Below, piece after piece: positions 7,781 to 30,017 of a stretch of 32,000 nt of DNA (position 1 is the first letter of the stretch; every line of letters starts with the position of its first letter). The notes beneath the pieces are model-generated. The model saw only the letters and a list, made by a program, of their open reading frames with translations, had not been told where the DNA came from and did not search any database. The position numbers and the translations under genes were made by a program. Source of the DNA: Methanosphaera stadtmanae DSM 3091. Its GTDB lineage: Archaea > Methanobacteriota > Methanobacteria > Methanobacteriales > Methanobacteriaceae. The stretch spans positions 1,020,001-1,052,000 of the forward strand of contig NC_007681.1 of the NCBI RefSeq assembly GCF_000012545.1, written 5' to 3'.

Positions 7781-10700
7781 TTAGCTTTTTACTACAGTTA
7801 TGGTACTATTTACATCGTTTCTATTGTATAATTTGTGTCCATATACACATGTGAATGTATAGTCTTGTGCTCTTGCATTTTCTGGTATTGTATAATCTAT
7901 TGTTACTAGTCCATCTTTTACTTCATGGTAAATTATATATCCCTCATTGTCTCTCATGGTTTTACCATTTACCTTGAATAGGACACGTCCTTCATTTACA
8001 TTAGCATCTTTTTCTGTTATTTTCACTGTTATTTTTATTGTTTGGCCTGGTTTTGCTGTTGTAGTGTTTGTTGTCATTGCCATTGTAGCTGTTTTTTTGG
8101 TTATGTTCATTGGTATTGTGTTGTTTGTTCTTGTTTGTTCATATGTGCTAGTTCCACCATAAACTACATTTAGTACTGATTTTATTTTAAACCAGTTTGC
8201 TGGTACTGTGTAGTTTTCTATCATTGCTATTCCATTTGTTACTGTTGTGTATATTATGTTTCCATTGGTGTCTTTTATTGTTTTTCCATTTACTTTGAAT
8301 ACTAAACGTCCTTCTGTTACAGGATTTCCATCTTCATCTGTTACTGTTGCTTTTAGATTGATTTTATCTCCTATTTGTGCATTTATTGGATCTATTGTTA
8401 CAGTAGTGCTGAGTTTATGTATATCCACGTTTATTGTTGTGTTTATTGCATTGTATGTTTCTGTTTCTTCATAGATGAATGTTAGGTTTTGATTAAAGTT
8501 TCCTCTGAAGATTTTAGTAAATATTCCTTTTCCATCAATTACATTGATTATTGCAAATGTGTTATTGTATTGGTCTATTACTGTTACTGTTCCATTTAAT
8601 GGATTTCCGTCTTCATCTGTTAGTGTTATTTGTATGTTTGTTTGTGTATTTGGTGTTGTTTTTACTGAGTCTACTTTGAGTATAGTATTTATTTTATCTA
8701 CGTTTACAGTTTGAGTAATTGTGTTTTCGTCATATTTACCTTCACCATCTCTATATGTTATTTGAATTGTATTTTCTCCATCTTTTGTTGGTGTGTAGTT
8801 GTATATAGCAATTCCATCTGTTAATGTTAATGTGGTTTCTTTCAAATAATTACCATTAATTATAACAATAACTGTACCATTTACGGCTTTATCCATCATT
8901 GAAGTAACATTTATCATTATTGGATATGTTTTACCCATTTTTATTTCTGATGGTATTGTTATGTTTATTTGTGTTTGATAGAATTCTTCTCCTATTGGAA
9001 AGTTATTTGATACGCTATTGCTTTTTCCAGTTTTTTTCACTGCATTATTACCTTGTGAGTCTATACTTTCAATATAATTCTCAGTTACTTTATTACGAAT
9101 ACCATTTATTATATCAATTACGGGAATACCATTGTTTTTAGCTTTAACAATTATTACGGAAGAAGAGATACTTACCCTAGTTGAATTTATGAATTTTACT
9201 GCAGTTGTTGGATTATCACTTTCTAGTTTTATGTTAAAATCATATAGAGTGATAAATTGTGCATTTATTATTTCGATTGCTGTTATATTATTTCCTTTTC
9301 CTTGAATATTATTATCTTCTATATATGGAGAGACATTAGTTAATGTGTTTCCTATAATTATTATTTTTGCAGGAGTATTATTATTTTCGTGATATATTAT
9401 ATTATTTTTTATAGTTACTGTTGAGTATATTTCTAGGCTTGTTTGTCTATCATCTGTGTTATGTATGTTTATTCCAGTCATGTTACTGTTTGTTGCATTT
9501 TCTGTGAAGATAATTGTTCCATTGTATATTGTGTAATTATTTGGATTTTCTATTATTACAGGATGATTAAAAATCATGTTTTTGTTAATTAAATCAGAAC
9601 CAAATTCTATCATGTTAATATTATCATTTAATGTTTGATTTGTAAAGTATTGATTATAATTGTTATTTGTTATTAGAACTCCAGGTTTGTTTTGATTCAT
9701 TGTGATATCTGTGGAATTTATTACATCTATTGTTAATTGTCCTTTTAAATCTTTTGTTTCTAAATAATTTTCAGTTATTGTTGCTTTATTTGAATTTTCT
9801 ATTATTATAAGAGGTATTTCAGTCTGATTTTCTGCTATTATATTATTTTTTGTAATTGATAAGTTTGTCGTGTTTTTGAATATACTTTGTATGGTGGTAT
9901 TTGTTAAGATGATATTTCTATTAATAGTTGAACTTTCACTATTTTCTATGTATATTGGAGTATTTTGTGTAGCATTCATTGTTATATTAGTGGAGGATAT
10001 TGATACTTTTTTATTGTTTACAAATATTGCTGTAGCATTATTTTTTGCATTTACTGTAATATCTGTGTTGGATACGTTTGTATTTATTAAGGCTATTATT
10101 TTTCCATTTTCTTCTGTTTTTGTTGTATTTACTGTGATGGTTCCCTTGGATATTGTTAAGGATCCTTCTGAGTATGTTGCTGTTGATACTTTAGTGTTGT
10201 CTTCTGAATTTATTTCTGGTGCATTTAGTGTTATATTTGTATTTATTATATTTGCTGTTGAATTATTATTTACATATATTGTCTGTGCTTGTTTTTCATT
10301 GTTGGTTTGTGTTATATTTGCATTATTAATGTTTACTTTTCCTGTCATAATGTTTATTATTGTTTTTCTATCATCTGTTATATTGAGTTTTAAATTGTTT
10401 AAGTTGCTTGTTTCTGTACTGTTTATTGTTATTGTTCCATTGTATATTGTGTAGTTTCTAGGGTTTTTTAATGTAATTGCATGGTTAAATATCATGTTTT
10501 TATTGTAAATATCAGATCCTATTGTTGTTTCTACTGTTTTATTAATATTGAATATTTGATTTACAAAATAGTCATTGTAATTATCATCTGTTAGAATTAT
10601 TATTTCTGGAATGTTGTTAGATAGAGTATTGTTTTTACTGTTTGTTTGGATAATTGTACTGTCTCCACCACGGAAATTATTACCATTGAGGTAGTTATTT

Positions 10701-13678
10701 ATTATTTTATTATTATTAGAATTAGTTAAATTCATTACATAATCGCTTTGTGTGGTAATGGTTATGTTGTCTATGGTATTGTTATTTGAGTTTTCCATGA
10801 TTATTGCAATATCATTTATATTTATTGTTGTGTTGGATACGTTTTCTGCTAGTCCTAAGTATGTGTTTGTAGTATTTACTAGTTTTAAGAAGTTTCCTTT
10901 AGTGTTATATAAGGAGTCTTTTTTCATAATGATGGATGTAATATTAGTATTTTTTGAATTGACTTGTTCTATAGCAACTATATCTGAATTAGTATTATTT
11001 AATGTAGAAACATATGTTAAAGTATTGAATATTTTTGTGTTATTACTATTTTTTGTTAGTATTTCTCTTGCATAATTACCTATTATCTTGTAATGGATAT
11101 AAGAATATGTAATATCTAAACATGAAACTTTTATATTATTACTATTTTCTAGAAATATGCCTATACTTTTATTAGAGGTTATTGTGGATGTTCCATAGGA
11201 TTTGGTGAAGGAATTGTTGTTATTATGCAATGCTAAAGTTCCGTTTGAGATTATTCCATATGCTATATTATTTGAGGTTATGGCTAGATTTTGTATAATT
11301 ATTGTATTATCTTTAGAATCTTGTAATTCTATTCCTTTTGCATTTTCTGAGGTGTGTATGTATATTTGATTTTGGAGAGTGTTTTTATTTGAATTTATTA
11401 ATTGATTTCCAATTGCATTTCTGTTTGTATTAATATAAATATAATTATTATCAAGATAATTTTTATTACTATTATTTAATATTATACCTGTTGAAGTTGT
11501 ATTAATTATATCACTGGTTGTTGTCATATTGATTTTATTGTTTGTTAGGATATTATTTGATGAGTTTATTTTTATACCTATGTTATTTGTTGTAGTATTT
11601 ATGTTAATCTTGTTTGATTCTATATTATTATCATTTTTATTTATTATAATACCAGTATAGGAATTAAATATGTTTGTATTTATATTATTGTTTCTTATAA
11701 GGTTATTTGTAGTATTAACAAGTATTCCATATTGATTATTATCATTATTATTAATGTTTATTTTTTGAATAATCATTGAAGCATTGTTTATTATATTAAT
11801 TGAACCATTTACAATGTAAATTCCATTTTTACTTGAAAGAAATGCTTTTATATTAGAAAAAGTTAAATCTTTATTTGTAATATTACCTGTAATAGTAATA
11901 ATACTTCCATTTTCAACAATATCTGTTTTAATTACACCATTATTATCAAAATAAGTACTATAATTATCATCAGTTAAATTAACATAACTACCAGTTACTG
12001 GAATATTATCTTTAATAATATTATTATCATTAGATGATATTGCCATATTACCAGTTAATACTTGTGAATATATTGTATTATTAATAATAATATTATTTTT
12101 AGAATTTGTATTTAATGTGATAGAATAAATATCGTTAGTTTTTATAATATTGTTAGTGATATTATTATTATCACCTGTTATAGCAATATATTTAGTTATG
12201 GTATTATTAGTTACAGTAGTATTTCCTTTAAGATACATTCCATAACCATTAGTTGTGAAGTTTATAATATTACCTTTTATTGTAGTGTTACGATTAATAG
12301 TTGAATATATAGCAAAAGTTGTACCAGTTGTTACACTAAGTGATCCAAATAAACTTGATGGTTGCATATCATTAAATGATGAATTATATATTTCATTTTT
12401 AAGTGTAGCATTATCTTTACCAGTTACATAAATACCAGTACTTTTATTGAAAATACAATTATCTACATATAAATTACCTTCACTTTGATAAATATCAGTT
12501 TGTTGGTTATTTATAAATGTAGAATTAATAATATTAGTTACAAGTCCACTAATACCATGAATATTAAAATAGTCTGCTCTACCAGTATTTGATGCAATTC
12601 CACTACCAAATTTATAAGTACTAGCAGCATTATAAGCTTTTCCATCTTTAATTGTACAATTAATAATGTCAATAATTTTATCATTAGTTATAGTACCCCA
12701 ACGAGCAATATTACCAATAAATTGACTGTTTAATACAATTGCAGTACCATTATTGTAAATACCCGCTCCAAAATTACCAGTAGATGAAGCTTTTCTATTT
12801 TTTTGGAAAATGCTATTATTCACAATGAGTGTAGAACCATTATTATTTCTAATACCTGCTCCTACTCCTGCAAGATTTTCAAGGAAATACACATTATCTA
12901 CTTCAAGATTACCATAATTATCAACAGTAGCAGTAGGATATAGACTTATACTATCTCCACCATTAGTACCATTACTTAACATATGTTGAATATTAAGATT
13001 TTTAATAATAATTTTACCAGTACCATTTGTAATATTCATACCCCAATTACCACCATAAATATTGTAATAATTAAAGTATGAATCATCACCCCATACACTA
13101 GCACCCGCAACTGTATAATTTACTTCTCCATCAATAATGGTTTTATTAATTCCATCTCCAATGAAGTTTATTTTATAATCTCCATTTACTGTAAGGTTAG
13201 TGTTTCCAACACCAGTATATGTACCTGTGGATATGTGTATATTGTAGGTGTTATCTTTAGTGGTTTGTGTTATTGCTTGATTGATTGTTTTATATGGTTT
13301 GTCAATTGATCCATCGTTTGTATCTGATCCTTTGTCATTGGATACGTAGTAGTTTATTTCTGATTCTTTTTTAAGTGTTTTATTGGTTGTTTTTATTTCT
13401 TCTTTATTTTTTTGTTTTTGTGTTGTAATTTCTTTTGTTTTTATTTCTTTTTTTGGAGTAATCTCTGTTTTAGTATCTTTAATAGTAGACTTTAATTCTT
13501 TATTATCATTGGTTATTATTTTTTCTTTATTATCTATTGTTTGTGATGTTGTCGTGTCTATTGTTTGTTTTTCTATTGAAGTGGTAGTTGTAGTGTTTGT
13601 GTCTGCTGCTGTTATTGTTGAAAGTCCTAGTATTAATACTATTAACAGTATTGAAGACAGTAGTATTTTATTCTTCAT
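7781..13678 (-). CDS. ALP-A: giant secreted Asn/Thr-rich adhesin-like protein (1965 aa). Signal peptide, T/K/E-rich stalk, parallel beta-helix with Pmp-like repeats, C-terminal Ig-like domain repeats
   Basis: Uninterrupted 5.9-kb ORF. The N-terminus MKNKILLSSILLIVLILGLSTITAADT is signal-peptide-like. GSDTNDGSIDKPYKTINQAI is a beta-helix N-cap motif. GVGAGIRNNNGS...NSIFQKN and FGAGIYNNGTA...NSQFIGN resemble the GGAI/FxxN polymorphic-membrane-protein repeat. The C-terminus carries repeated GxVxFKVNGKT...DG.A...YT Ig-like units. GGAGG and GTGAT lie upstream of the ATG. Confidence 0.88.
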   Translation of the reverse strand: MKNKILLSSILLIVLILGLSTITAADTNTTTTTSIEKQTIDTTTSQTIDNKEKIITNDNKELKSTIKDTKTEITPKKEIKTKEITTQKQKNKEEIKTTNKTLKKESEINYYVSNDKGSDTNDGSIDKPYKTINQAITQTTKDNTYNIHISTGTYTGVGNTNLTVNGDYKINFIGDGINKTIIDGEVNYTVAGASVWGDDSYFNYYNIYGGNWGMNITNGTGKIIIKNLNIQHMLSNGTNGGDSISLYPTATVDNYGNLEVDNVYFLENLAGVGAGIRNNNGSTLIVNNSIFQKNRKASSTGNFGAGIYNNGTAIVLNSQFIGNIARWGTITNDKIIDIINCTIKDGKAYNAASTYKFGSGIASNTGRADYFNIHGISGLVTNIINSTFINNQQTDIYQSEGNLYVDNCIFNKSTGIYVTGKDNATLKNEIYNSSFNDMQPSSLFGSLSVTTGTTFAIYSTINRNTTIKGNIINFTTNGYGMYLKGNTTVTNNTITKYIAITGDNNNITNNIIKTNDIYSITLNTNSKNNIIINNTIYSQVLTGNMAISSNDNNIIKDNIPVTGSYVNLTDDNYSTYFDNNGVIKTDIVENGSIITITGNITNKDLTFSNIKAFLSSKNGIYIVNGSINIINNASMIIQKININNNDNNQYGILVNTTNNLIRNNNINTNIFNSYTGIIINKNDNNIESNKININTTTNNIGIKINSSNNILTNNKINMTTTSDIINTTSTGIILNNSNKNYLDNNYIYINTNRNAIGNQLINSNKNTLQNQIYIHTSENAKGIELQDSKDNTIIIQNLAITSNNIAYGIISNGTLALHNNNNSFTKSYGTSTITSNKSIGIFLENSNNIKVSCLDITYSYIHYKIIGNYAREILTKNSNNTKIFNTLTYVSTLNNTNSDIVAIEQVNSKNTNITSIIMKKDSLYNTKGNFLKLVNTTNTYLGLAENVSNTTININDIAIIMENSNNNTIDNITITTQSDYVMNLTNSNNNKIINNYLNGNNFRGGDSTIIQTNSKNNTLSNNIPEIIILTDDNYNDYFVNQIFNINKTVETTIGSDIYNKNMIFNHAITLKNPRNYTIYNGTITINSTETSNLNNLKLNITDDRKTIINIMTGKVNINNANITQTNNEKQAQTIYVNNNSTANIINTNITLNAPEINSEDNTKVSTATYSEGSLTISKGTITVNTTKTEENGKIIALINTNVSNTDITVNAKNNATAIFVNNKKVSISSTNITMNATQNTPIYIENSESSTINRNIILTNTTIQSIFKNTTNLSITKNNIIAENQTEIPLIIIENSNKATITENYLETKDLKGQLTIDVINSTDITMNQNKPGVLITNNNYNQYFTNQTLNDNINMIEFGSDLINKNMIFNHPVIIENPNNYTIYNGTIIFTENATNSNMTGINIHNTDDRQTSLEIYSTVTIKNNIIYHENNNTPAKIIIIGNTLTNVSPYIEDNNIQGKGNNITAIEIINAQFITLYDFNIKLESDNPTTAVKFINSTRVSISSSVIIVKAKNNGIPVIDIINGIRNKVTENYIESIDSQGNNAVKKTGKSNSVSNNFPIGEEFYQTQINITIPSEIKMGKTYPIMINVTSMMDKAVNGTVIVIINGNYLKETTLTLTDGIAIYNYTPTKDGENTIQITYRDGEGKYDENTITQTVNVDKINTILKVDSVKTTPNTQTNIQITLTDEDGNPLNGTVTVIDQYNNTFAIINVIDGKGIFTKIFRGNFNQNLTFIYEETETYNAINTTINVDIHKLSTTVTIDPINAQIGDKINLKATVTDEDGNPVTEGRLVFKVNGKTIKDTNGNIIYTTVTNGIAMIENYTVPANWFKIKSVLNVVYGGTSTYEQTRTNNTIPMNITKKTATMAMTTNTTTAKPGQTIKITVKITEKDANVNEGRVLFKVNGKTMRDNEGYIIYHEVKDGLVTIDYTIPENARAQDYTFTCVYGHKLYNRNDVNSTITVVKS

Positions 13679-13780
13679 ATTGAATCACGTTCCTCCCATG
13701 TTTTTTATAAGAAAAATAATCTAATTTTTTCTTATTTCCATTAAAAATTTCTAAATTTCTAATTAAAACAAAATTGATTT

Positions 13781-13802
13781 TAACTAAGTTTTATCTTAGT
13801 TA
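13781..13802 (-). promoter_or_regulatory. Conserved inverted repeat TAACTAAG-N6-CTTAGTTA in the ALP-A upstream leader
   Basis: AACTAAG at 13782-13788 and CTTAGTT at 13795-13801, an 8-bp stem when flanking bases are included. The same element occurs upstream of ALP-B and ALP-C. Confidence 0.45.
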
Positions 13803-13896
13803 TTATTAATTTAAGAAGGATTATATTTAAATTTAATCTAATTAAAGTAATAGTAAATAGTTTTAGAAAATAAATATAATTTATTAAATAAAGAAA

Positions 13897-13908
13897 GGGG
13901 GGGGGGGG
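13897..13908 (-). repeat. Homopolymeric tract G12 (C12 on the ALP coding strand), 218 nt upstream of the ALP-A ATG
   Basis: Counted directly: g at 13897-13908, flanked by a-runs. Confidence 0.95.
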
Positions 13909-13926
13909 AAAAATATATTGTTTTAT

Positions 13927-13934
13927 TTTATAAA
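13927..13934 (-). promoter_or_regulatory. TATA-like box TTTATAAA, 18 nt from the poly-C tract (candidate ALP-A promoter)
   Basis: Coding strand reads GTGAAATATTTTTATAAAATAAAACAATATATTTTT-C12, an A-rich BRE-like stretch followed by TTTATAAA. With the usual archaeal TATA position (about -30 to -23), the start site falls inside the tract. The same 18-nt spacing occurs at all three loci. Confidence 0.35.
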
Positions 13935-14051
13935 AATATTTCACGTGTTTATTTATAAAATAAAATAATATTTATCATTTCTTTTATTAATAACTCTTAT
14001 ATTTTTTGAATTATTAAAATAATTAAATCTTTTTATTGGATAATTTAATTT

Positions 14052-17000
14052 TTAGTTTTTTACTACAGTGATTGTACTGTTTACATCGTTTCTATTGTAT
14101 AATTTGTTTCCATATACACATGTGAATGTATAGTCTTGTGCTCTTGCATTTTCTGGTATTGTGTATGTTATTGTTACTAGTCCATCTTTTACTTCATGGT
14201 AAATTATATATCCCTCATTATCTCTCATGGTTTTACCATTTACCTTGAATAGGACACGTCCTTCATTTACATTAGCATCTTTTTCTGTTATTTTCACTGT
14301 TATTTTTATTCTTTCTCCTGGTTTTGCTGTTGTAGTGTTTGTTGTCATTGTCATTGTTGCTGTTTTTTTGGTTATATTCATTGGTATTGTGTTGTTTGTT
14401 CTTGTTTGTTCATATGTGCTAGTTCCACCATAAACTACATTTAGTACTGATTTTATTTTAAACCAGTTTGCTGGTACTGTGTAGTTTTCTATCATTGCTA
14501 CTCCATCTTTTATTGTTGCGTATATGATGTTTCCATTAGCATCTTTTATTGTTTTACCATTTACTTTGAATACTAAACGTCCTTCTGTTACAGGATTTCC
14601 ATCTTCATCTGTTACTGTTGCTTTTAGATTGATTTTATCCCCTATTTGTGCATTTATTGGATCTATTATTACAGTAGTGCTGAGTTTATGTATATCCACG
14701 TTTATTGTTGTGTTTATGGTGTTATATGTTTCTGTTCCGTCATAGATGAATGTTAGGTTTTGATTGAAGTTTCCTCTGAAGATTTTAGTAAATGTTCCTT
14801 TTCCATCAATTACATTGATTATTGCAAATGTGTTATTATATTGATCTATTACTGTTACTGTTCCATTTATTGGGTTTTCAAATTCATCTGTTAGTGTTAT
14901 TGGTATGTTTATACGTGTATTTGGTATTCCTTTTACTGAGTCTACTTTGAGTATAGCATTTATTTTATTTACTGTTATAGATTGAGTAATAGTGTTGTTT
15001 TCATATTTACCTGTTGGGTCATTGTATGTTATTTTTATTGTGGTTTCACCATCTTTTGTTGGTGTGTAGTTGTATGTGGCTATTCCATCTGTTAATGTTA
15101 AATTAGTTTCTTTATCTCCAATATTTAGTATAACAGTTCCATTTACTGGTTTGTCTAGCATACTTGTTACATTTATTGTAATTGGATATGTTTTACCTAC
15201 TTTTAATTCTGAAGGTAGTGTTGTTATGTTCATTTGTGTTCTATAGTTTCCATTTGTTGGTTTATTATTGTTTATACTAGCTGTTCCTGTTCCAATTTTT
15301 TTTACTGCATCGTTACCACATACATCTTCACTTTCAATGTAATTATTAGTTATGACATTAATTGTAGGATTGATTATTTCTATTATTGGTGTATCATAGT
15401 TTTTGGTTTTAACAATGACTATATTATTTGTAAGTCTTACTCCTTTGGAATTTATGAATCGTACTGCTGTTATTGGATTTTCACTTTCTAATGTAATATT
15501 ATTTGTAGTTATTCGTATTATAGCTGCAGTTTTACTGTTTGTTACTTCTATTGCTGTGATATTGGATCCTTTTCCATTAATGATATTACTTACTGAAGTT
15601 ATTATTTTTAGGTTGTTTAAGGTTATTATTGTTACATTTTTACCTATTGTTGTAATATTATTCCTACTAAATCCTACACTTCCTGTATTATTAACAATTA
15701 TTGTTTTTGCTGGATTATTAGTATTTTCTTGATATAATGTATTTTTTATTATATTTATTGAATTTGAGTATATTTCAAGGCTTGTTTGTCTATCATCTGT
15801 GTTATGTATGTTTATTCCAGTCATATTACTGTTTGTTGCATTTTTTGTAAAAATAATAGTTCCATTGTATACTGTGTAATTATTTGGATTCTCTATTATT
15901 ACAGGGTGATTGAAAATCATGCTTTTGTTAATTAAATCAGAACCAAATTCTATTATAGTTATATCTGAATTTAGTGTTTGATTTGTAAAGTACTGATTAT
16001 AATTTTCATTTGTTATTAGAACTCCTGGCCTGTTAAATGACATTGTAATATTTGTTGAATTTATTACTTTAACTGCATTATTTCCTTTTAAATCACTTGT
16101 CTCTAGATAATTTCCTATAATTCTTATATTATTTGAGTTTTCAATTATTATTAAATGAGTTTTACTTTGATTTTCTACTTTTATAATATTATTTGTGATA
16201 TTTATCACAGATCTGTTTTCAATTATATTTTGAGTGTTATTATTACTTATAAATATATTTTCATTTATTCTTGTTTCTATGAATGATGAAATATAGTTTT
16301 TTAAATATAATGGAGTATTGTTTGTACCATTTGTAATTATTTTATTATTCTCTAATGTTAAATATCCCTTAGTTTGTATTATTCCTGTTGTATATGGAGA
16401 ATTAAGAGTTATATTATTATCACGTAAAGATGTATGATTTTCACTGATTATTCCTATTGTTTGGTTTTTACTGTATAAATTAAAATTATTTGATCCTATA
16501 TTACTTACAGCAGTATCGTTAAAAATATTTTTTATAAATGCTATCGCATTGTTTTCAGAATTCATTGTGATATTAGACAAATATATAGATCCAATATTTA
16601 TCATTGCAATTATTTTTCCATTTTGTACAGTTTTTGTTGTATTTACTGTAATATTTCCCCTATATATTGTTAAGGATCCTTCTGAGTATGCTGCTGTTGA
16701 TACTTTGGTGTTATCTTCTGAATTTATTTCTGGTGCATTTAATGTTATATTTATATTCATTATATTTACTTTTGAATTTGTATTCACATATATTGTCTGT
16801 GCCTGATTTTCATTATTAATTTGTGTTATATTTGCATTATTAATATTTAGAGTTCCTGCCATAACATTTATAACTGTTTTTCTATCATCTGTTATGTTGA
16901 GTTTTAGAATATTTAAATTACTTGTTTCTGTACTGTTTATGGTTATTGTTCCATTGTATATTGTGTATTTTCTTGGATTTTTTAATGTAATTGCATTGTT

Positions 17001-20000
17001 AAATGTCATATTTTTATTGTAAATGTCTGATCCAAGTATTAATTCTACTGTTTTATTTATTATCCATGTTTGATTTATAAAGTATTGGTTATAATTATCA
17101 TTTGTTAAAATTATTACATTAGGTGTGTTGTTTTGTATGATATTATTTTGACTATTTGTTTGTATAACTGCACTATCTCCACCATAGAAGTTATTACCAT
17201 TGAGGTAATTGTTTATTATAGTATTATTGTTTGAGTTTGTTAAGTTTATAGTATAATCTGTATTGGTGTTTATGGTTATATTATCTATAATATTATTATC
17301 TGAATTTTCTAGTATAATTGCAATATTAACTATATTTATGTTAGCACTTGAAACGTTATTTCTTGAACCAAGATATGTATTTGTAGTATTTACTAGTTTT
17401 AAAAAGGTACTGTTGTAATTTACATAGCTTCCTGACGAAATATACTTCTGCATCCCAATAGCAGTTATATTAGTATTTTCTGAGTTAATTTGTTCTATTC
17501 CTATTAAATCAGGCATTTTATCACTTATTTCTTTTGTAATATGAATGCTTAAATAAAATATCTCTGTATTATTTGTATTTTTTGTTAATATTGTTCTTAC
17601 AGTATTACCTCTTGTAACATAATTCATTGAAGTTGATCTTGAAGATATATTAGTATTTGTTGTATTTTCTAATAATGTACCTATAATAGTATCTGCTGTT
17701 ATGTCTATGTTATTTGAAATAGTATTATTTTTATTTAATGCTTTTTCTCCAGTTATTATAGTTCCATATCCTGTATTATTACTTATTATGTTAATATAAT
17801 TATTTATTTGATTGTTTTGTGAGTTTATTAATTCTACTCCTTTTGCATTTTCTGATGCATATACATATATATTATCATTAATTATATTATTGTCTGATTT
17901 TATTAATTTTTCACCAATAGCATTAATATTACTCATCATAAGTATTCGATTACCAGATAGTATGTTATTATTTGTATTGGATTTTAAGTTTAATCCAATT
18001 ATTGTAGTATCTGTTATTTTAGAAATAGTTGTTGTATTGATTTTGTTGGATAATAAATAGTTATAAGATGATTCAATTGAAATACCTGTATTATTTGTTG
18101 TACTTGTAATATTAATAACATTTTTTTCTAAGTTATTATTATCTTTTTTTATTATAATAGCTTCAATAGGTTTATTAGAATCTATCATTATGTTATTGTA
18201 TGTTATAAGGTTATTATCACTATCAATAAGTAAACCTACTTTATTATTATTTATGATGTTTGTATTGTTAATAATCAAAGAAGCATTATTAATTATACTA
18301 ATTGAACCATTTTGTATGTAAATGTTTTTCTTAGATGAAAGAAATGCTTTTATATTAGAAAAAGTTAAATCTTTATTTGTAATATTACCTGTAATAGTAA
18401 TAATACTTCCATTTTCAACAACATCTGTTCTAATTATGCCCTTATCATCAAAATAAGTATTATAATTATTATTAGTTAAATTAATATAAATACCAGTTTC
18501 TGGAATATTATCCTTAATAATATTGTTATTATTATTGGATGATATAGCTTTATCACCAGTAAATACCTGAGAGTATATTGTGTTATTAATTATAGTATTA
18601 TTTTTAGAATTTCTATTTAATGTGATAGAATAAATATCGTTAGTTTTTATAATATTGTTAGTGATATTATTATTATCACCTGTTATAGCAATATATTTAG
18701 TTATGGTATTATTAGTTACAGTAGTATTTCCTTTAAGATACATTCCATAACCATTAGTTGTGAAGTTTATAATATTACCTTTTATTGTAGTGTTACGATT
18801 AACAGTTGAATATATAGCAAAAGTTGTACCAGTTGTTACACTAAGTGATCCAAATAAACTTGATGGTTGCATATCATTAAATGATGAATTATATATTTCA
18901 TTTTTAAGTGTAGCATTATCTTTACCAGTTACATAAATACCAGTACTTTTATTGAAAATACAATTATCTACATATAAATTACCTTCACTTTGATAAATAT
19001 CAGTTTGTTGGTTATTTATAAATGTAGAATTAATAACATTAGTTACAAGTCCACTAATACCATAGGGATTAAAATAGTCAGATCCACCAGTATTTGATGC
19101 AATACCACTACCAAATTTAAAAGTACTAGCAGCATTATAAGCTTTTCCATCTTTAATTGTACAATTAATAATATCAATAATTTTATCATTGGTTATAGTA
19201 CCCCAACGAGCAATATTACCAATAAATTGACTGTTTAATACAATTGCAGTACCATTATTATAAATACCTGCTCCATAATTACCAGTAGAAGATCCTTTTC
19301 TGTTTCCTTCAAATATTGAATTATTTACAAGTAGTGTTGAACCATTATTACTTCTGATACCTGCTCCTACTCCTGCGAGATTTTCAAAGAAATACACATT
19401 ATCTACTTCAAGATTACCATAATTATCAACAGTAGCAGTAGGATATAAACTTATACTACTTCCACCCCCCGTACCATTACTTAACATATGTTGAATATTC
19501 ATATTTTTAATAGTAATAATACCAGTACCTTTAGTAATATTCATACCCCAATTACCTTTAGTAATTATATATGAATTAAAATAAGAATCATCACCCCATA
19601 CACTAGCACCACCAATAGTATAATTTACTTCTCCATCAATGATTGTCTTATTAATTCCATCTCCTATGAAGTTTATTTTATAATCCCCATTTACTGTAAG
19701 GTTGGTGTTTCCAACACCAGTATATGTACCTGTGGATATGTGTATGTTGTATATGTTATCTTTAGTGGTTTGTGTTATTGCTTGATTGATTGTTTTATAT
19801 GGTTTGTCAATTGATCCATCGTTTGTATCTGATCCTTTGTCATTGGATACGTAGTAGTTTATTTCTGATTCTTTTTTAAGTGTTTTTATTTCTTCTTTAT
19901 TTTTTTGGTTTTGTGTTGTAATTTCTTTTGTTTTTATTTCTTTTTTTGGAGTAATCTCTGTTTTAGTATCTTTTATATTGGATTTTACTTCTTTATTATC

Positions 20001-20165
20001 ATTGACTATTACTTTTTCTTTATTATCTATTGTTTGTGATGTTGTCGTGTCTATTGTTTGTTTTTCTATTGAAGTGGTAGTTGTTGTGTCTGTTGCTGTT
20101 ATTGTTGAAAGTCCAAGTATTAATACTATTAACAGTATTGAAGATAGTAGTATTTTATTCTTCAT
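14052..20165 (-). CDS. ALP-B: giant secreted Asn/Thr-rich adhesin-like protein (2037 aa), paralog of ALP-A
   Basis: Uninterrupted 6.1-kb ORF. The N-terminal ~640 aa and C-terminal ~330 aa are almost identical to ALP-A, and the central part alternates conserved and divergent blocks. It has the same signal peptide, beta-helix cap, Pmp-like repeats and Ig-like C-terminal repeats. Confidence 0.88.
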   Translation of the reverse strand: MKNKILLSSILLIVLILGLSTITATDTTTTTSIEKQTIDTTTSQTIDNKEKVIVNDNKEVKSNIKDTKTEITPKKEIKTKEITTQNQKNKEEIKTLKKESEINYYVSNDKGSDTNDGSIDKPYKTINQAITQTTKDNIYNIHISTGTYTGVGNTNLTVNGDYKINFIGDGINKTIIDGEVNYTIGGASVWGDDSYFNSYIITKGNWGMNITKGTGIITIKNMNIQHMLSNGTGGGSSISLYPTATVDNYGNLEVDNVYFFENLAGVGAGIRSNNGSTLLVNNSIFEGNRKGSSTGNYGAGIYNNGTAIVLNSQFIGNIARWGTITNDKIIDIINCTIKDGKAYNAASTFKFGSGIASNTGGSDYFNPYGISGLVTNVINSTFINNQQTDIYQSEGNLYVDNCIFNKSTGIYVTGKDNATLKNEIYNSSFNDMQPSSLFGSLSVTTGTTFAIYSTVNRNTTIKGNIINFTTNGYGMYLKGNTTVTNNTITKYIAITGDNNNITNNIIKTNDIYSITLNRNSKNNTIINNTIYSQVFTGDKAISSNNNNNIIKDNIPETGIYINLTNNNYNTYFDDKGIIRTDVVENGSIITITGNITNKDLTFSNIKAFLSSKKNIYIQNGSISIINNASLIINNTNIINNNKVGLLIDSDNNLITYNNIMIDSNKPIEAIIIKKDNNNLEKNVINITSTTNNTGISIESSYNYLLSNKINTTTISKITDTTIIGLNLKSNTNNNILSGNRILMMSNINAIGEKLIKSDNNIINDNIYVYASENAKGVELINSQNNQINNYINIISNNTGYGTIITGEKALNKNNTISNNIDITADTIIGTLLENTTNTNISSRSTSMNYVTRGNTVRTILTKNTNNTEIFYLSIHITKEISDKMPDLIGIEQINSENTNITAIGMQKYISSGSYVNYNSTFLKLVNTTNTYLGSRNNVSSANINIVNIAIILENSDNNIIDNITINTNTDYTINLTNSNNNTIINNYLNGNNFYGGDSAVIQTNSQNNIIQNNTPNVIILTNDNYNQYFINQTWIINKTVELILGSDIYNKNMTFNNAITLKNPRKYTIYNGTITINSTETSNLNILKLNITDDRKTVINVMAGTLNINNANITQINNENQAQTIYVNTNSKVNIMNINITLNAPEINSEDNTKVSTAAYSEGSLTIYRGNITVNTTKTVQNGKIIAMINIGSIYLSNITMNSENNAIAFIKNIFNDTAVSNIGSNNFNLYSKNQTIGIISENHTSLRDNNITLNSPYTTGIIQTKGYLTLENNKIITNGTNNTPLYLKNYISSFIETRINENIFISNNNTQNIIENRSVINITNNIIKVENQSKTHLIIIENSNNIRIIGNYLETSDLKGNNAVKVINSTNITMSFNRPGVLITNENYNQYFTNQTLNSDITIIEFGSDLINKSMIFNHPVIIENPNNYTVYNGTIIFTKNATNSNMTGINIHNTDDRQTSLEIYSNSINIIKNTLYQENTNNPAKTIIVNNTGSVGFSRNNITTIGKNVTIITLNNLKIITSVSNIINGKGSNITAIEVTNSKTAAIIRITTNNITLESENPITAVRFINSKGVRLTNNIVIVKTKNYDTPIIEIINPTINVITNNYIESEDVCGNDAVKKIGTGTASINNNKPTNGNYRTQMNITTLPSELKVGKTYPITINVTSMLDKPVNGTVILNIGDKETNLTLTDGIATYNYTPTKDGETTIKITYNDPTGKYENNTITQSITVNKINAILKVDSVKGIPNTRINIPITLTDEFENPINGTVTVIDQYNNTFAIINVIDGKGTFTKIFRGNFNQNLTFIYDGTETYNTINTTINVDIHKLSTTVIIDPINAQIGDKINLKATVTDEDGNPVTEGRLVFKVNGKTIKDANGNIIYATIKDGVAMIENYTVPANWFKIKSVLNVVYGGTSTYEQTRTNNTIPMNITKKTATMTMTTNTTTAKPGERIKITVKITEKDANVNEGRVLFKVNGKTMRDNEGYIIYHEVKDGLVTITYTIPENARAQDYTFTCVYGNKLYNRNDVNSTITVVKN

Positions 20166-20276
20166 ATTGAATCACGTTCCTCCTATATTTTTTATAAGAA
20201 AAATAATCTAATTTTTCCTTATTTTCATTAAAAATTTCTAATTAAAATAAAATTGATTTTAACTAAAATTTGATTT

Positions 20277-20298
20277 TAACTAAGTTTTATCTTAGTTA
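20277..20298 (-). promoter_or_regulatory. Conserved inverted repeat TAACTAAG-N6-CTTAGTTA in the ALP-B upstream leader
   Basis: AACTAAG at 20278-20284 and CTTAGTT at 20291-20297. Confidence 0.45.
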
Positions 20299-20388
20299 TT
20301 ATTAATTTAAGAAGGATTATATTTAAATTTAATCTAATTAAAGTAATATTAAATAGTTTTAGAAAATAGATATAATTTATTAAATAAA

Positions 20389-20397
20389 GGGGGGGGG
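20389..20397 (-). repeat. Homopolymeric tract G9 (C9 on the coding strand), 223 nt upstream of the ALP-B ATG
   Basis: Counted directly: g at 20389-20397. Confidence 0.95.
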
Positions 20398-20415
20398 AAA
20401 AATATATTGTTTTAT

Positions 20416-20423
20416 TTTATAAA
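20416..20423 (-). promoter_or_regulatory. TATA-like box TTTATAAA, 18 nt from the poly-C tract (candidate ALP-B promoter)
   Basis: Identical to the ALP-A arrangement. Confidence 0.35.
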
Positions 20424-20540
20424 AATATTTCACGTGTTTATTTATAAAATAAAATAATATTTATCATTTCTTTTATTAATAACTCTTATATTTTTTGAAT
20501 TATTAAAATAATTAAATCTTTTTATTGGATAATTTAATCT

Positions 20541-23500
20541 TTAGTTTTTTACAACAACTACTGTACTGTTTACATCGTTTCTATTGTATAATTTGTTTCC
20601 ATATACACATGTGAATGTGTAGTCTTGTGCTCTTGCATTTTCTGGTATTGTGTATGTTATTGTTACTAGTCCATCTTTTACTTCATGGTAAATTATATAT
20701 CCCTCATTGTCTCTCATGGTTTTACCATTTACCTTGAATAGGACACGTCCTTCATTTACATTAGTATCTTTTTCTGTTATTTTCACTGTTATTTTTATTG
20801 TTTGTCCTGGTTTTGCTGTTGTAGTGTTTGTTGTCATTGTCATTGTAGCTGTTTTTTTGGTTATATTCATTGGTATTGTATTGTTTGTTCTTGTTTGTTC
20901 ATATGTGCTAGTTCCACCATAAACTACATTTAGTACTGATTTTATTTTAAACCAGTTTGCTGGTACTGTGTAGTTTTCTATTGTTGCTATTCCATCTTTT
21001 ACTGTTGCATAGATAATATTTCCATTGGTGTCTTTTATTGTTTTTCCATTTATTTTAAATACTACTCGGCCTGTGTTTATTGGATTTCCATATATGTCGT
21101 ATACATGTGCTTTTAAGTTGATAGTATCTCCTACTTGTGCATTTATTGTTTCTAATACTATTTTTGTGTTGATTATTGCTCTTGTATTGTTTTCTAGATA
21201 TGTGTCATAGTTTGTATTTATTGTTCTTGTTCCTGTTTTTGTACTTGTTGTTAGTTTATTGTTTGTTATTGTCGTGTTTTTTATTGAGTTTTCGGTGTTT
21301 ATTGTTAAATCATGTTGTCCTATATCTTTTATTATTATTGTATTGTTGTCTATTTGTGTGTTATGTGAGTTTTGTTGTATTTGTATTCCTGTGTTTGCTG
21401 GTCTTATTTCTTCTACTATATCATTTATTTTTATGTTACTGTTTCCATATAGTATCATTTCATTGTTTATTATTGTATTATCTTCACTGTGTGCTAGTCC
21501 TATTCCCATTGTATAGTTTCCATTTCCAAGTATTGTATTGTTGTTTATTGTTGTATTTGATGTTTGATATATTTCCATTCCATATATTACTGATGAGTTA
21601 AGTTGTATGTTATTGTTTGTGATTGTTATGTTGTTTGTTCTGCCTCCACCCATACTTGTTGTTATTATTCCATATGCTAATGGTTCATTATCATCTGTAA
21701 ATGTTGTTGTATTATAGCATGTTCCTGTTATATTGTTTCCTGTTATTGTACAATTGGTTGCTTTATTTCCCATTTGTATTCCATTAACATATCTGTGTCC
21801 TGTTACATGAATATTGTTATCTTTAATTATTGTATTATTTACACGGTCAAGTGTATTTATTCCATAATTAAATCTTCCTCCTGTTACTGTTACATTGTTG
21901 TTTATTATGAGTATGTTGTTACTTTTTCCTGGTGCTGTTATTCCTTCTATTGTACTGTAGAGGTTATCATCAGGATTTGTACTATTATATACTTTAACAT
22001 TATTTTTTGATATTATATTATTTTCTCCACCAACAGATAATATTCCCTGTGTATTTGCTATAGATGTTCCACTTCCATATGTAATAGTTAATGCTGGACC
22101 ATATACTTTTACTGTATTATTTGATATAAGTATGTTACTTCCACCTGTATTTGCTATTGCTGCTGTTTTACCATTTGTGTTATATGTGTAGATTGTATTG
22201 TTTATTATTTTATTATTGTTTCCTGCTGATTTTATGGTGTATTCAGTTGTATCTGTATTGTTAATTTTCATGTTTTTAATTGTTATATTTACATCATCAA
22301 GTTCAAAGCTTGTATTTGTAAATGTAGCATTTTCACCATTTATTATTATGCCTGGTGTTGTTATGCTTATTTGTCCTTTATTTATGAAGTCTCCTTTAAA
22401 TATGATATTAGTATCTTCATCAACACCTATTAATTCATTGTTAAATATGTAACTCTCATAGTTTTCTGGTGTAATTGTTAAGTATTGGTGTTGTGATAAT
22501 TTAAGTACTAGTATGTTAGTAGTTTTAGATGTTATTGTTGGCTTTGCATAAAGAATAATATTATCAGTTGTGTTTCTTGTAATTTCAGTACTAAGAGTAT
22601 CTTCTATTTTATACAAATTTTTTCCTATATAAAATGCATATTTTGTTTTATTAAGTATATCTTTATCATAACTTTCTGGATTTTTTAATATGATACTACC
22701 ATTTATTTTAGCAGTTTCATTAACAAATACTTTACCAGGATTATTTAATGTAAGATTACTAAATGCTATTGTACAATTATCATAAGAATTATTTTCAATA
22801 ATGGTTCTTGTACTATCATTTGTCACATTTATAAATAATGTATCATTAGCACATAAAACATTTTTAAATGTGTTATTTACAAAGGTAGTATTTAAATTAC
22901 TTCCACCATTTATAAAAACAGATCCTGCAAAACCACTAGCATAACTGTTTGTGAAAGTATTATTTTCTATTAAACAGTTACTATAGATTGTCATGGAAAG
23001 ATCTGCTCCAGAACCAGAATATCTACCATCAAAATAATATTGAGGCATATACTGTGCTTTAACACTACTTATATTATTATCTTTAAAAATACAATTAGTT
23101 AATGTTAAATTTAGAGCATCGTTTCCACCAATTGCAGCTCCACCACTCATAGCCCAAGAACTATTAAATTGAATATAATTATTTTCGAAAATAGTATTAT
23201 TTATAAGAGAATACCCTCCAGCCAAATAAAGAGCTGCTCCATAACAATTACCAATTTCATATTGGTTTGTAACTACACAACTTTTGTTTCTAAAAGTACA
23301 ATTATCTATAGTAGTATGATTGCTTGAAGATATAGATACACCACTACCACCATTAGTGAAAGTAGAATTATATATATTTATAATATTTAATGCATTAACT
23401 GTAATATCTTTATTATTATTATCAAAAAGACTATTAGTAACATTTAAATTAGATGTTCCGTATCTATTAAATATATTTTTAATTATATTCACGGTAAATC

Positions 23501-25100
23501 TACTGTTATTTTTAAAAATACAATTATCTATATTAAAATTCAAGGTAATATCAACTTTAGGGTCTATATGTGAATAAATACATGATATGTTATTATTACT
23601 CATAGTAGTATTAGTAATAGTTAAATTACCATTAGTATATATTACATATACATAACCTATTGATTTAGCACTATTATTAGTTAAAGTAGAATTAATAATA
23701 ATTAAATTACCGCCCTCGTTATGTAATAATCCAGCAGGACCACCCCAATTTCTATCATCATAAATATCAGACATGGTACAATTAATAATAGTTAAATTAC
23801 CATAATTAGATAAGGTAGTATTAAGTATAGAGTTAATAATAGTTAAATTACCATAATTATACCTACTGCCTGATAAAGTAATATTATTTAATGTATAATT
23901 ACCATTATAAGTATCTATATACTTGATAATATCGGTTTTATTAGTAATTATAATACCTTTTCCACTTATTAATGCATTACTACCTAATATGGTATCATCA
24001 CTAATAGTTAAATTACCATTACTATACATAGTTGTATTTAATGTACAATTATTCAAAGTTAAATTACCATTATTTGTTCTTGAAGTTTTTATTTCAAAAT
24101 TATTTAATGTATAATTACCTTTATATGTTTGATAATAATTTATTATGTTTGTTTTATTGGTAATTATAATACCTTTTCCACTTATTAATGCATTACTACC
24201 TAATATGGTATCATCACTAATAGTTAAATTACCATTACTATACATAGTTGTATTTAATGTACAATTATTCAAAGTTAAATTACCTCTATTTTGCATCATC
24301 TTAGCATTTAATGTACAATTATTTAGAGTTAAATTACCATTATTTGTTCTTGAAGTTTTTATTTCAAAATTATTTAATGTATAATTGCCATTATATGTTC
24401 GATAATAATTTATTATGTTTGTTTTATTGGTAATTACAGTTCCTTCTTCAATTAGTGTGTTTTCTTTAATTATACAATTATCATCAATAATTATGTAATT
24501 AGCACGAATACTAGAATCAACAGTACAATTATGTAAAGTTAAATTCTTTGCATATATAAATTTTGTTAATATACTGTCATTAAAAGTAAGATTATAATTA
24601 TACATATTAAATTCAAAATCAATAGTTTGATTATTTCCATTAATTGTTACATCTTTTAGATAAGAACCACAAGAAATCCTCTCCTCGGAACTATAATTTC
24701 CGGGTTCTAAATTAATAATCCATTCATAAGAACTGCTTTTTTGAGATATTTCACTAAAAACCTTTTCTATTTCAGTAAAATTATTCACAGTTTTTTCTAC
24801 TGGTGTTGTTTTTAATGTTTTTGTTTTTAATGTTTTATTAGTTGTTACAACTTCTTTAGTTATGTCTTGTTTAGGAGTAATTTCTTTTTTAGTATCTTTT
24901 ATACTGGACTTTACTTCTTTAGTTATGTCTTGTTTTTCTTTATAATCAGTGTTAGTAGGAGTGTTAGTTGTTGGTGTCTGTTTTTCTATGATATTAGTAG
25001 TTGTTGGTGTTGTTGTATTTGTGTCTGTTGCAGATATAGCTGAAAGTCCTAGTAATAATACTATTAATATTATTGAAGATATTAATATCTTATTCTTCAT
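20541..25100 (-). CDS. ALP-C: giant secreted Asn/Thr-rich adhesin-like protein (1519 aa from ATG 25100). Distinct N-terminal beta-helix region; C-terminal 206 aa shared with ALP-A and ALP-B
   Basis: Uninterrupted 4.6-kb ORF. MKNKILISSIILIVLLLGLSAISATDT is signal-peptide-like and homologous to the A/B start. The track start at 25109 is the GTG within the GTGAT SD-like element. Pmp-like motifs include YGAALYLAGG...NNTIFENN, SGGAAIGG...TNCIFKDN and GFAGSVFINGG...NNTFKN. The C-terminal Ig-like module is near-identical to A and B. Confidence 0.88.
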   Translation of the reverse strand: MKNKILISSIILIVLLLGLSAISATDTNTTTPTTTNIIEKQTPTTNTPTNTDYKEKQDITKEVKSSIKDTKKEITPKQDITKEVVTTNKTLKTKTLKTTPVEKTVNNFTEIEKVFSEISQKSSSYEWIINLEPGNYSSEERISCGSYLKDVTINGNNQTIDFEFNMYNYNLTFNDSILTKFIYAKNLTLHNCTVDSSIRANYIIIDDNCIIKENTLIEEGTVITNKTNIINYYRTYNGNYTLNNFEIKTSRTNNGNLTLNNCTLNAKMMQNRGNLTLNNCTLNTTMYSNGNLTISDDTILGSNALISGKGIIITNKTNIINYYQTYKGNYTLNNFEIKTSRTNNGNLTLNNCTLNTTMYSNGNLTISDDTILGSNALISGKGIIITNKTDIIKYIDTYNGNYTLNNITLSGSRYNYGNLTIINSILNTTLSNYGNLTIINCTMSDIYDDRNWGGPAGLLHNEGGNLIIINSTLTNNSAKSIGYVYVIYTNGNLTITNTTMSNNNISCIYSHIDPKVDITLNFNIDNCIFKNNSRFTVNIIKNIFNRYGTSNLNVTNSLFDNNNKDITVNALNIINIYNSTFTNGGSGVSISSSNHTTIDNCTFRNKSCVVTNQYEIGNCYGAALYLAGGYSLINNTIFENNYIQFNSSWAMSGGAAIGGNDALNLTLTNCIFKDNNISSVKAQYMPQYYFDGRYSGSGADLSMTIYSNCLIENNTFTNSYASGFAGSVFINGGSNLNTTFVNNTFKNVLCANDTLFINVTNDSTRTIIENNSYDNCTIAFSNLTLNNPGKVFVNETAKINGSIILKNPESYDKDILNKTKYAFYIGKNLYKIEDTLSTEITRNTTDNIILYAKPTITSKTTNILVLKLSQHQYLTITPENYESYIFNNELIGVDEDTNIIFKGDFINKGQISITTPGIIINGENATFTNTSFELDDVNITIKNMKINNTDTTEYTIKSAGNNNKIINNTIYTYNTNGKTAAIANTGGSNILISNNTVKVYGPALTITYGSGTSIANTQGILSVGGENNIISKNNVKVYNSTNPDDNLYSTIEGITAPGKSNNILIINNNVTVTGGRFNYGINTLDRVNNTIIKDNNIHVTGHRYVNGIQMGNKATNCTITGNNITGTCYNTTTFTDDNEPLAYGIITTSMGGGRTNNITITNNNIQLNSSVIYGMEIYQTSNTTINNNTILGNGNYTMGIGLAHSEDNTIINNEMILYGNSNIKINDIVEEIRPANTGIQIQQNSHNTQIDNNTIIIKDIGQHDLTINTENSIKNTTITNNKLTTSTKTGTRTINTNYDTYLENNTRAIINTKIVLETINAQVGDTINLKAHVYDIYGNPINTGRVVFKINGKTIKDTNGNIIYATVKDGIATIENYTVPANWFKIKSVLNVVYGGTSTYEQTRTNNTIPMNITKKTATMTMTTNTTTAKPGQTIKITVKITEKDTNVNEGRVLFKVNGKTMRDNEGYIIYHEVKDGLVTITYTIPENARAQDYTFTCVYGNKLYNRNDVNSTVVVVKN
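23944..24429 (-). repeat. In-frame 216-bp (72-aa) tandem repeat inside ALP-C, with a nested 54-bp duplication in one copy
   Basis: 23944-24159 and 24160-24429 align, with the first 126 nt identical. The upper copy carries an extra 54 nt encoding NAKMMQNRGNLTLNNCTL. A degenerate third copy flanks each side. It is also visible as the duplicated antisense ORFs 23923-24114 and 24145-24384. Confidence 0.9.
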
Positions 25101-25141
25101 TTTAATCACTTTTCCTCCATAATTTAAATAAATTTTAAAAT

Positions 25142-25161
25142 AACTAAGATTTATCTTAGTT
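25142..25161 (-). promoter_or_regulatory. Conserved inverted repeat AACTAAG-N6-CTTAGTT in the ALP-C upstream leader
   Basis: AACTAAG at 25142-25148 and CTTAGTT at 25155-25161, 42-61 nt upstream of the ATG. The surrounding sequence has diverged from the A/B copies. Confidence 0.5.
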
Positions 25162-25254: not shown

Positions 25255-25263
25255 GGGGGGGGG
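25255..25263 (-). repeat. Homopolymeric tract G9 (C9 on the coding strand), 154 nt upstream of the ALP-C ATG
   Basis: Counted directly: g at 25255-25263. Confidence 0.95.
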
Positions 25264-25281: not shown

Positions 25282-25289
25282 TCTATAAA
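25282..25289 (-). promoter_or_regulatory. TATA-like box TTTATAGA, 18 nt from the poly-C tract (candidate ALP-C promoter)
   Basis: Coding strand reads TATAATTTTTATAGATAAAAACAATGGAATTTT-C9. An ungapped alignment with the A/B distal region gives about 32/46 identical positions and keeps both the box and the 18-nt spacing. Confidence 0.35.
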
Positions 25290-25620
25290 AATTATACTGG
25301 AGTTTATTTTTTAAATAAAACCTTAATTATCTTTACTTTTAAATATATGATTATATAATTATAATTTAATTTATTATGAAAATACATGATGATTTATTTA
25401 ATCCATATTTTTTCTACTGTTTGTTTATTGACATATATATTATATACTTAAAAAAAGAGTGTTCTTATAAGAACTGCAATATTTATTTTAAAGTGGTTTT
25501 CAACAAGATTTTCTTGTTATGTTTATAATTATCTAAAATATGTTGAATATTTTGTATAATATAAATCATGAAAATATACAAATTAATAGAGTAAAATAAG
25601 TCTCATACTCATTAATAAAT

Positions 25621-25628
25621 AAAAAAAA
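25621..25628 (-). terminator. Oligo-T (T8) terminator candidate downstream of pycA
   Basis: A8 on the plus strand, 23-30 nt beyond the pycA stop. Further downstream are the palindrome GTTCTTATAAGAAC (25461-25474) and a T7 run. Confidence 0.4.
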
Positions 25629-29824: not shown

Positions 29825-30017
29825 GATTTCACTTCATCTAAAATTAATACTAAAACAAAATAATTAGTATATATTATAATGTGTAATAGATACTATAAAA
29901 ATTGTAATAAAAAAAAAGTGTTTATAAAAATCATAGCCCCAAGATCTTTACAAAAATCATAGTAAAAATTTTAAAGAGATAGGATTTCTACAAAGCCATG
30001 TTTTATAAATACTACAG

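Follow-up and report, generated by a model that had tools for sequence, protein, structure and literature searches.

A length-variable poly-C tract in the 5' region of the ALP genes of Methanosphaera stadtmanae as a candidate per-gene contingency locus

This work suggests that the run of 12 consecutive G at 13897-13908 of the window, by which we mean the whole 32-kb stretch of M. stadtmanae DNA that was analysed, represents the allele that the reference strain carries at a poly-C tract of the sense strand. This tract would belong to a 5' control module that at least 10 paralogous genes for Asn/Thr-rich large proteins (ALPs) have in common, and it may serve as a contingency locus for each of these genes separately, a reading for which we regard the chances as evenly balanced. 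At the sequence level, the features expected of a contingency locus were found: a homopolymer of at least 8 nucleotides is present in the 5' region and is in excess over what base composition predicts, it is associated with surface genes, and its length differs between close genomes faster than point substitutions accumulate. What is in need of explanation is the persistence of long, pure C-runs at one position only in a genome of 27% G+C, and the distinctive features of the tract are its presence, its purity, its strand and its fixed position.

Poly-C tracts upstream of the ALP genes

M. stadtmanae is a methanogen of the human gut, and the G+C content of the window is 27%. Exact protein look-ups matched the gene order uL3, Msp_0910, ALP-A, ALP-B, ALP-C and PycA to ABC57297-57302 of M. 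stadtmanae DSM 3091. The three ALP genes lie on the reverse strand, with the ALP-A coding sequence at 7781-13678 (1965 aa, ABC57299, Asn/Thr-rich large protein family, ATG at 13678), the ALP-B ORF at 14052-20165 with its stop at 14052, and the ALP-C ORF at 20541-25109, in which the real ATG is at 25100. The source records (ABC57299-57301) annotate all three as 'member of asn/thr-rich large protein family', and the features of this family were found in the products, which are large and rich in N and T, have MKNKIL-type signal sequences (N-termini MKNKILLSSILL), and carry beta-helix and Ig-like (Big) domains, identified as the Pfam domains Beta_helix and Big_3_5. Rfam gave no match in the 32-kb window at gathering thresholds, and a tRNA scan of the window found none. 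Elsewhere in the window, birA, encoding biotin-protein ligase, at 27632-28607 (+), is split into ORFs of 47 aa and 191 aa. This gene is intact in strain loci (322 aa, at 8534-9502 of L034), and the reference has a 2-nt deficit near 27738-27745; the split would mean that birA is a pseudogene or that the reference sequence is in error here.

A sequence-only reading of this DNA had described a G12 run upstream of ALP-A and no G/C run longer than 6 away from the three ALP upstream regions. Both statements stand. Twelve consecutive G were counted on the forward strand at 13897-13908, and only three G/C runs longer than 6 occur in the window, namely this G12 and two G9 runs, one at 20389-20397 in the sister copy upstream of ALP-B and one at 25255-25263 upstream of ALP-C. 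All three were read directly from the sequence and are poly-C on the reverse strand, which is the coding strand of the genes, and the next longest run is the C6 at 19465-19470. At ALP-A, the tract is part of a composite T5-C12-T3 run (13894-13913, reverse strand), which itself lies within a 24-nt purine-free stretch of the sense strand. The ALP-A, ALP-B and ALP-C start codons are 154-223 nt downstream of the C12, C9 and C9 tracts, respectively. The ALP-A tract had been placed 218 nt before the ATG (13678), with 143 nt between it and the ALP-B stop (14052). Both distances proved right, and a TATA-like TTTATAAA was indeed found at 13927-13934, 18 nt from the tract. Under an i.i.d. expectation, approximately 0.001 G/C runs of at least 9 and 2.5e-6 runs of at least 12 would occur in the window, against three observed runs of at least 9. 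Similarly, the pattern G9 had 6 overlapping matches, compared with a mean of 0.01 in 100 dinucleotide shuffles.

The same reading had called the sister copy (20166-20540) almost base-for-base identical to the ALP-A upstream region, with the tract length having changed after the duplication. The first part was slightly overstated, as 350 of 382 aligned columns match, and the second part holds. The 143 nt upstream of the tract are identical in the two copies except for one base, and downstream of the tract the sister copy differs by a 9-nt indel inside a poorly aligning stretch of ~20 nt and by scattered SNPs. At the tract itself, the difference is C12TTTC versus C9, or 7 nt, which is more than three G alone. 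An upstream ORF running through the tract (a 54-aa ORF with a GTG start, in which the tract is read as PPPP) was considered and rejected, since copies and alleles do not share its reading frame.

The association of the tract with ALP genes extends beyond the reference strain. Strain contigs were gathered by exact uL3 and PycA matches, by ALP homologues and by a metagenome scan for the leader motif, which provided ~510 kb of M. stadtmanae-like contigs as a redundant total. These contigs contain 33 C/G runs of at least 8 (29 non-redundant), all of which are poly-C on the sense strand. In 29 of the 33 cases, a large ALP ORF starts 145-239 nt downstream of the run; the remaining four runs lie where no such ORF could be called, at the ends of contigs or within one that is error-prone. 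The link to ALP upstream regions noticed in the window was thus found to be exclusive when all C/G runs of at least 8 in the ~510 kb are considered, and the four loci recovered by the leader-motif scan all fit the pattern. At least 10 distinct ALP paralogues carry the tract: ALP-A, ALP-B and ALP-C, the 1428-aa ALP of L027, the 2464/2465-aa ALP of L032 and L043, P0105, P0102, P0175, P0128, and the 1806-aa gene downstream of P0128. DSM 3091 has roughly 37-40 ALP genes.

No tract was found in six ALP genes from Methanosphaera sp. WGK6 and ISO3-F5, nor in two ALP-like genes in L045. Since the ALPs of two other Methanosphaera species are without tracts, ALP expression does not require the tract. 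In addition, one leader of the M. stadtmanae-like contigs (L052b, at 13220-13548 of L052, and also at the first ALP gene of L064, 1-166) has ATCATTATC in place of C9. This leader is homologous to the L044 leader on both flanks of the tract position, its GGAGG Shine-Dalgarno sequence is degraded to AAAGG, and the gene downstream is apparently intact. A scan of a genome collection for GGGGGGAAAANNNNATTGTTTT returned 24 bacterial matches, about the number expected by chance, with no Methanosphaera among them; of the viral-contig scans, one was empty and the other gave unrelated phage poly-C sites only. The IMG/VR viral contigs L053, L054, L058-L060 and L063 share 'acgctaaaacaataccc(a/t)C9ttttttt' upstream of a gene, and this poly-C site is unrelated to the one described here. 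Methanosphaera sp. ISO3-F5 has, at 21880-21940 of L042, a short array of GGTAAGTAATCA-G(5-10)-TCTT units, which adjoins an IS605 OrfB/TnpB-like gene (20401-21726).

Homopolymers are error-prone in sequencing, and T-runs flank the tract, which might suggest that it is a sequencing artefact or, alternatively, a terminator or insulator of the upstream gene. However, both the finished reference genome and over 20 independent assemblies contain the tract. The pycA gene has T5/T4/T8 runs of its own right after its stop codon, ~390 nt before the ALP-C tract, and poly-C is not known as an archaeal termination signal. An explanation of this kind, whether by artefact or by termination, is barely credible.

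The shared 5' module and its candidate promoters

On the coding strand, the 5' regions of the tract-bearing genes are arranged in the order A/T-rich DNA, the run T(1-5)C(8-12)T(n), a spacer, a TATA block, a hairpin, a variable leader, GGAGG, and the ATG followed by the signal peptide. A TATA-like box is often found 17-21 nt before the tract. For ALP-A, this distal box is TTTTTATAAA (13927-13936, reverse strand), 18-20 nt upstream of the tract, and it constitutes candidate promoter P1. The A, B and C types all have TTTTTATA, which ends 20 nt short of the tract; in ALP-C, whose copy has diverged, it occupies 25284-25291 (reverse strand) and is likewise 20 nt upstream of the tract. Boxes at similar spacing are TTTTAATA in L048 and L064g3 and TTTTTAAA in L051. 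In L043, L044 and L052a, the upstream sequence is unrelated. There are paralogues that keep the tract without the upstream TATA sequence. A CACGTG palindrome is located 33 nt upstream of the ALP-A and ALP-B tracts (13942-13947 and 20431-20436); other strains retain it in their A-type leaders, and the C type lacks it.

Downstream of the tract, the block that is most conserved across leader types is TTAAATTTAAATATAAT (13820-13831, reverse strand), which contains a perfect TTTAAATA (13824-13831) as candidate promoter P2 and has the consensus TTAAAT(TTAAAT)ATAAT. It is followed by a hairpin or palindrome, AACTAAG-ATAAAA-CTTAGTT at 13782-13801 (reverse strand), 95 nt downstream of the ALP-A tract, and AACTAAG-ATAAAT-CTTAGTT at 25142-25161 (reverse strand), 93 nt downstream of the ALP-C tract. 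The general form is AACTAAG-N5-6-CTTAGTT, with a conserved stem and a variable loop, and a common AGCTAAG variant stays G.U-compatible. A further candidate, AACTAAT...ATTAGT as a compensatory variant of the hairpin, was dropped because it sits in a coding region. The distance from the tract to the hairpin was 91-95 nt in all 13 leaders measured, across an intervening sequence that is poorly conserved and sometimes unrelated, and in which the segment from tract to hairpin gave no significant RNA fold (z-scores of -0.3 to -2.6). A length of ~90 bp corresponds to ~9 helical turns or to the footprint of three archaeal histone dimers. From the hairpin to the ATG, the distance ranges from ~40 to 125 nt by way of indels; the ALP-A Shine-Dalgarno sequence, identified as a match to GGAGG, is at 13692-13696 (reverse strand).

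When nine leader types were aligned, the mean column identity was 64%, the types had unrelated sequences on the upstream side of the tract, and the C-run was unbroken in eight of them and absent from the ninth. Furthermore, none of 29 instances of the tract has a point interruption. It could be argued that such a pattern is a passive relic, in which the 5' cassette of an ancestral ALP gene had a C-run at its start by chance and was spread by duplication, gene conversion and recombination, so that the tract would mark the edge of a repeat unit. In L043, L044 and L052a, the tract is indeed the exact point at which homology between paralogous leaders sets in, the junctions of strain rearrangements fall at ALP 5' modules, and assemblies break at the tract, all of which are consistent with this explanation. 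In contrast, the tract is not always the boundary, as L027 shares 60 nt further upstream with the C type, and the spacing of 91-95 nt kept across an unrelated spacer argues for constraint. A passive origin would also have to account for a run that has stayed unbroken despite this low column identity and many indels in a genome of such low G+C content, and we consider it improbable.

The archaeal TATA box is centred near -26/-27 from the start site. Because the TATA centre lies near -26 in this geometry, P1 (TTTTTATAAA) predicts a start 3-5 nt inside the tract, which is plausible, and the observation that homology between paralogues starts at the tract fits a transcribed, conserved leader behind a generic A/T-rich promoter. 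As for P2, TTTAAATA is located 22 nt before a T/A step, a candidate initiator, at the first base of the conserved hairpin. P2 is a candidate at least as good as P1. The use of P2 would place the tract at approximately -96 to -107, where it would be untranscribed, and it would give an mRNA with a 5'-terminal stem-loop. In paralogues other than the A, B and C types, the A/T octamers are only loosely TATA-like. Moreover, TTTAWATA is not enriched in the AT-rich window (24 observed versus 32 expected), and therefore matches to the motif carry little weight. A literature search found no published start-site or ALP expression data for M. stadtmanae.

A start upstream of the tract would also be required if the transcribed poly-C acted as an anti-Shine-Dalgarno element, pairing with GGAGG ~150-220 nt downstream and thereby throttling translation. 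The partition function does pair the Shine-Dalgarno guanines with the tract in the ALP-A, ALP-B, ALP-C and L044 leaders (P = 0.8-0.96), and the single leader without the tract also has a degraded Shine-Dalgarno sequence. However, this pairing is near-trivial, because the leader has no G-rich patch other than the Shine-Dalgarno sequence. The pairing is saturated once the tract reaches C6-C8, it is weak in L051, L050 and L046, and several leaders have the Shine-Dalgarno sequence paired at ~0.9 without any tract. We regard throttling of this kind as very improbable.

Length variation between strains

The expectation from the sequence-only reading that the tract would be hypermutable was confirmed by the strain comparison, in which strains with 0-0.5% divergence elsewhere have orthologous and paralogous tracts of anything from C8 to C12, with the reservation that some of the length calls are from metagenome assemblies, two of them nanopore-hybrid, in which homopolymer errors are possible. 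For instance, the ALP-C tract in 11 strains is C9 in three, C10 in six, C11 in one and C5 in one, the last being a nanopore-hybrid contig. These strains have 5-24 substitutions over the 4.5-kb flank, which corresponds to a divergence of 0.1-0.5%, and at least five ALP-C tract alleles; the T-runs flanking the tract vary among them as well. The ALP-A ortholog in L050, with a protein identity of 97%, is preceded by C10, versus C12 in the reference. The clearest case is that of L065 and L066, which have no substitutions over ~8 kb, yet the tract before the ALP that follows P0128 is C12 versus C9. At the P0128 locus, an identical 2490-aa ALP is found in five contigs, and the tract that follows it shows four alleles across L064-L067.

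The borders of the tract change in addition to its length. In L031-L040, near 11851-11895, the T/C borders move at constant total run length (T4C9T4, T4C10T3 and T3C10T4), and a border shift was also found in L064-L067 near 7840-7870 (T3C9 versus T1C11). Transient-misalignment ('dislocation') mutagenesis at run ends yields border shifts of constant total length, and the observed shifts suggest substitutions of this type. Both the length and the borders of the tract change far faster than ordinary sites mutate, matching the expectation for slipped-strand mispairing.

This instability is not restricted to the C-runs. Intergenic A/T runs of 8-9 nucleotides (27456-27464, 27589-27597, 25621-25628 and 29909-29917) are also length-polymorphic in the same strains; the A9 run at 27456-27464 is 7, 8 or 9 nucleotides long and the T8 run at 25621-25628 is 7, 8 or 10. 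Because A/T runs of 8-9 vary too, the instability is a general property of the long runs of these genomes, or of their assemblies, and is not in itself evidence of function. The main rival to the contingency reading is an element whose action does not depend on tract length. Such a cis-element would need a C-run of ~6-8 or more, and the polymorphism between C8 and C12 would be a neutral by-product. Possible jobs for it include marking or forming the transcript start, binding a protein, and either the exclusion of archaeal histones or their positioning, at 91-95 bp from the proximal promoter. The equal variation of the A/T runs is in agreement with this proposal, as is the finding that every allele is C8 or longer (the C5 of the nanopore-hybrid contig apart), with no preferred length. 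The tract is also pure and fixed in strand and spacing, and no pair of elements known to be spacing-sensitive flanks it. However, interruptions would end the instability and yet keep the C-richness that such an element needs, and none was found in the 29 instances; in addition, the sole leader without the tract still precedes an intact gene. On balance, a role independent of length is a serious proposal but somewhat unlikely.

Several other differences between strains were observed at these loci. In the nanopore-hybrid contig L033 (11854-11960), the ALP-C leader has C5 and, through a deletion of ~100 nt, has lost both the conserved TATA block and the hairpin; this deletion and the fragmented ALP genes of the contig could be real decay or assembly error. 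The contigs L065 (1-11), L066, L067 and L068 start in or at the tract upstream of P0128. The assemblies break there, which could be due to a repeat boundary or to heterogeneity of the reads. The number of ALP genes between pycA and Msp_0910/rpl3 (7781-25109 in the window) is 1, 2 or 3 depending on the strain (L027, L028/L034, L031, L032 and L043), and the same ~2465-aa ALP is found after pycA in L032 and after the rpS27e region in L043. These differences in ALP number and identity are rearrangements with junctions at ALP 5' modules.

A possible contingency locus for each gene and its relation to known systems

If the tract is a contingency locus, slipped-strand mispairing and transient misalignment would change its length and its T/C borders, and each ALP gene would thereby have its own stochastic and heritable tuner of expression. 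Two routes from tract length to expression can be envisaged. In the first, the distal TATA box would fire into the tract, and the length would alter the initially transcribed sequence. In the second, the length would alter the spacing and the helical phase between the upstream DNA and the proximal block of promoter and hairpin. Support for the contingency reading comes from the enrichment of the tracts, their exclusive and strand-specific link to ALP genes and their hypermutability, from the long, unbroken tract that has been kept in heavily diverged leaders and from the fixed geometry of the module. Against it, A/T runs vary too, and polymorphism is expected of any long run. Furthermore, archaeal starts are measured from the TATA box, and thus the tract is not located between promoter elements that are known to be spacing-sensitive. 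It also speaks against a contingency function that the ATCATTATC leader, which is without the tract, precedes what appears to be an intact gene, and that ALP genes of two other Methanosphaera species are without tracts.

It is conceivable, although we put this forward only tentatively and lean against it at present, that the tracts form the first simple-sequence-repeat phase-variation system in Archaea, in which at least 10 ALP genes, each with an independent poly-C switch, would generate combinatorial and heritable variation of the cell surface. The switch would then operate through TBP/TFB by a mechanism unlike the -35/-10 spacing of bacteria. The conserved 91-95 bp might act through helical phasing or through a histone oligomer of ~90 bp, or, alternatively, the length of the tract might alter a start inside the C-run.

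The closest likeness in architecture is to the vlp genes of Mycoplasma hyorhinis, which carry a poly(A) tract in their promoters and for which ON/OFF switching has reportedly been demonstrated. Like the ALP genes, the vlp genes are a multigene family encoding large, repetitive surface proteins with a divergent external domain, and in both families the genes share a conserved 5' module that comprises promoter region, leader and signal peptide and in which each gene has a homopolymer of its own. In contrast to the vlp poly(A), which lies between the -35 and -10 elements of a sigma-factor promoter, the ALP tract is poly-C and belongs to an archaeal TBP/TFB system. Promoter poly-C tracts are found at Bordetella pertussis fim2 and fim3 and at Neisseria meningitidis opc. 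As in the ALP genes, these are poly-C tracts of ~9-15 upstream of genes for surface structures, and their length is polymorphic between close isolates. However, the fim2/fim3 and opc tracts set the spacing of an activator site or -35 element to the -10 element, whereas no equivalent pair was identified at the ALP tracts, and the ALP tracts differ from the bacterial cases in the conserved 91-95 bp to the downstream block. The B. pertussis tracts are surveyed in PMC1891110. According to the available part of PMC12721329, the Haemophilus influenzae genes hmw1A and hmw2A have intergenic or 5'-UTR repeat loci. Within what that part covers, they resemble the ALP genes in that the repeat lies far ahead of the start codon, within or close to a long leader, and could allow graded rather than ON/OFF control, and they differ in having longer repeat units and a bacterial, RNase III-dependent mechanism that has been experimentally tested.

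An excess of homopolymers in this genome has been reported before. In the available part of their paper, Huang and Mrazek (2014; PMC4060949) describe M. stadtmanae as an extreme outlier, in which mononucleotide runs of at least 8 are over-represented in intergenic DNA and depleted in genes. This is the same signal at the level of the genome, and that part of the paper does not give the nucleotide, the link to ALP genes or the polymorphism between strains. A literature search for repeat-driven phase variation in Archaea, or for tracts of this kind in Methanosphaera or at ALP genes, found no report; the 2006 genome paper (Fricke) was outside the search.

It is recognised as an open question by what means the methanogens of the gut vary or regulate their adhesin-like proteins, of which they have dozens, and a 2024 survey of ALPs (PMC11532034) lists the regulation of ALP expression as unanswered. 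If the contingency reading is true, it would explain the intergenic homopolymer excess of the M. stadtmanae genome, which had been reported previously and left uninterpreted, and it would bring the archaeal transcription machinery within the reach of repeat-driven phase variation. M. stadtmanae would then share the bet-hedging strategy of host-adapted bacteria.
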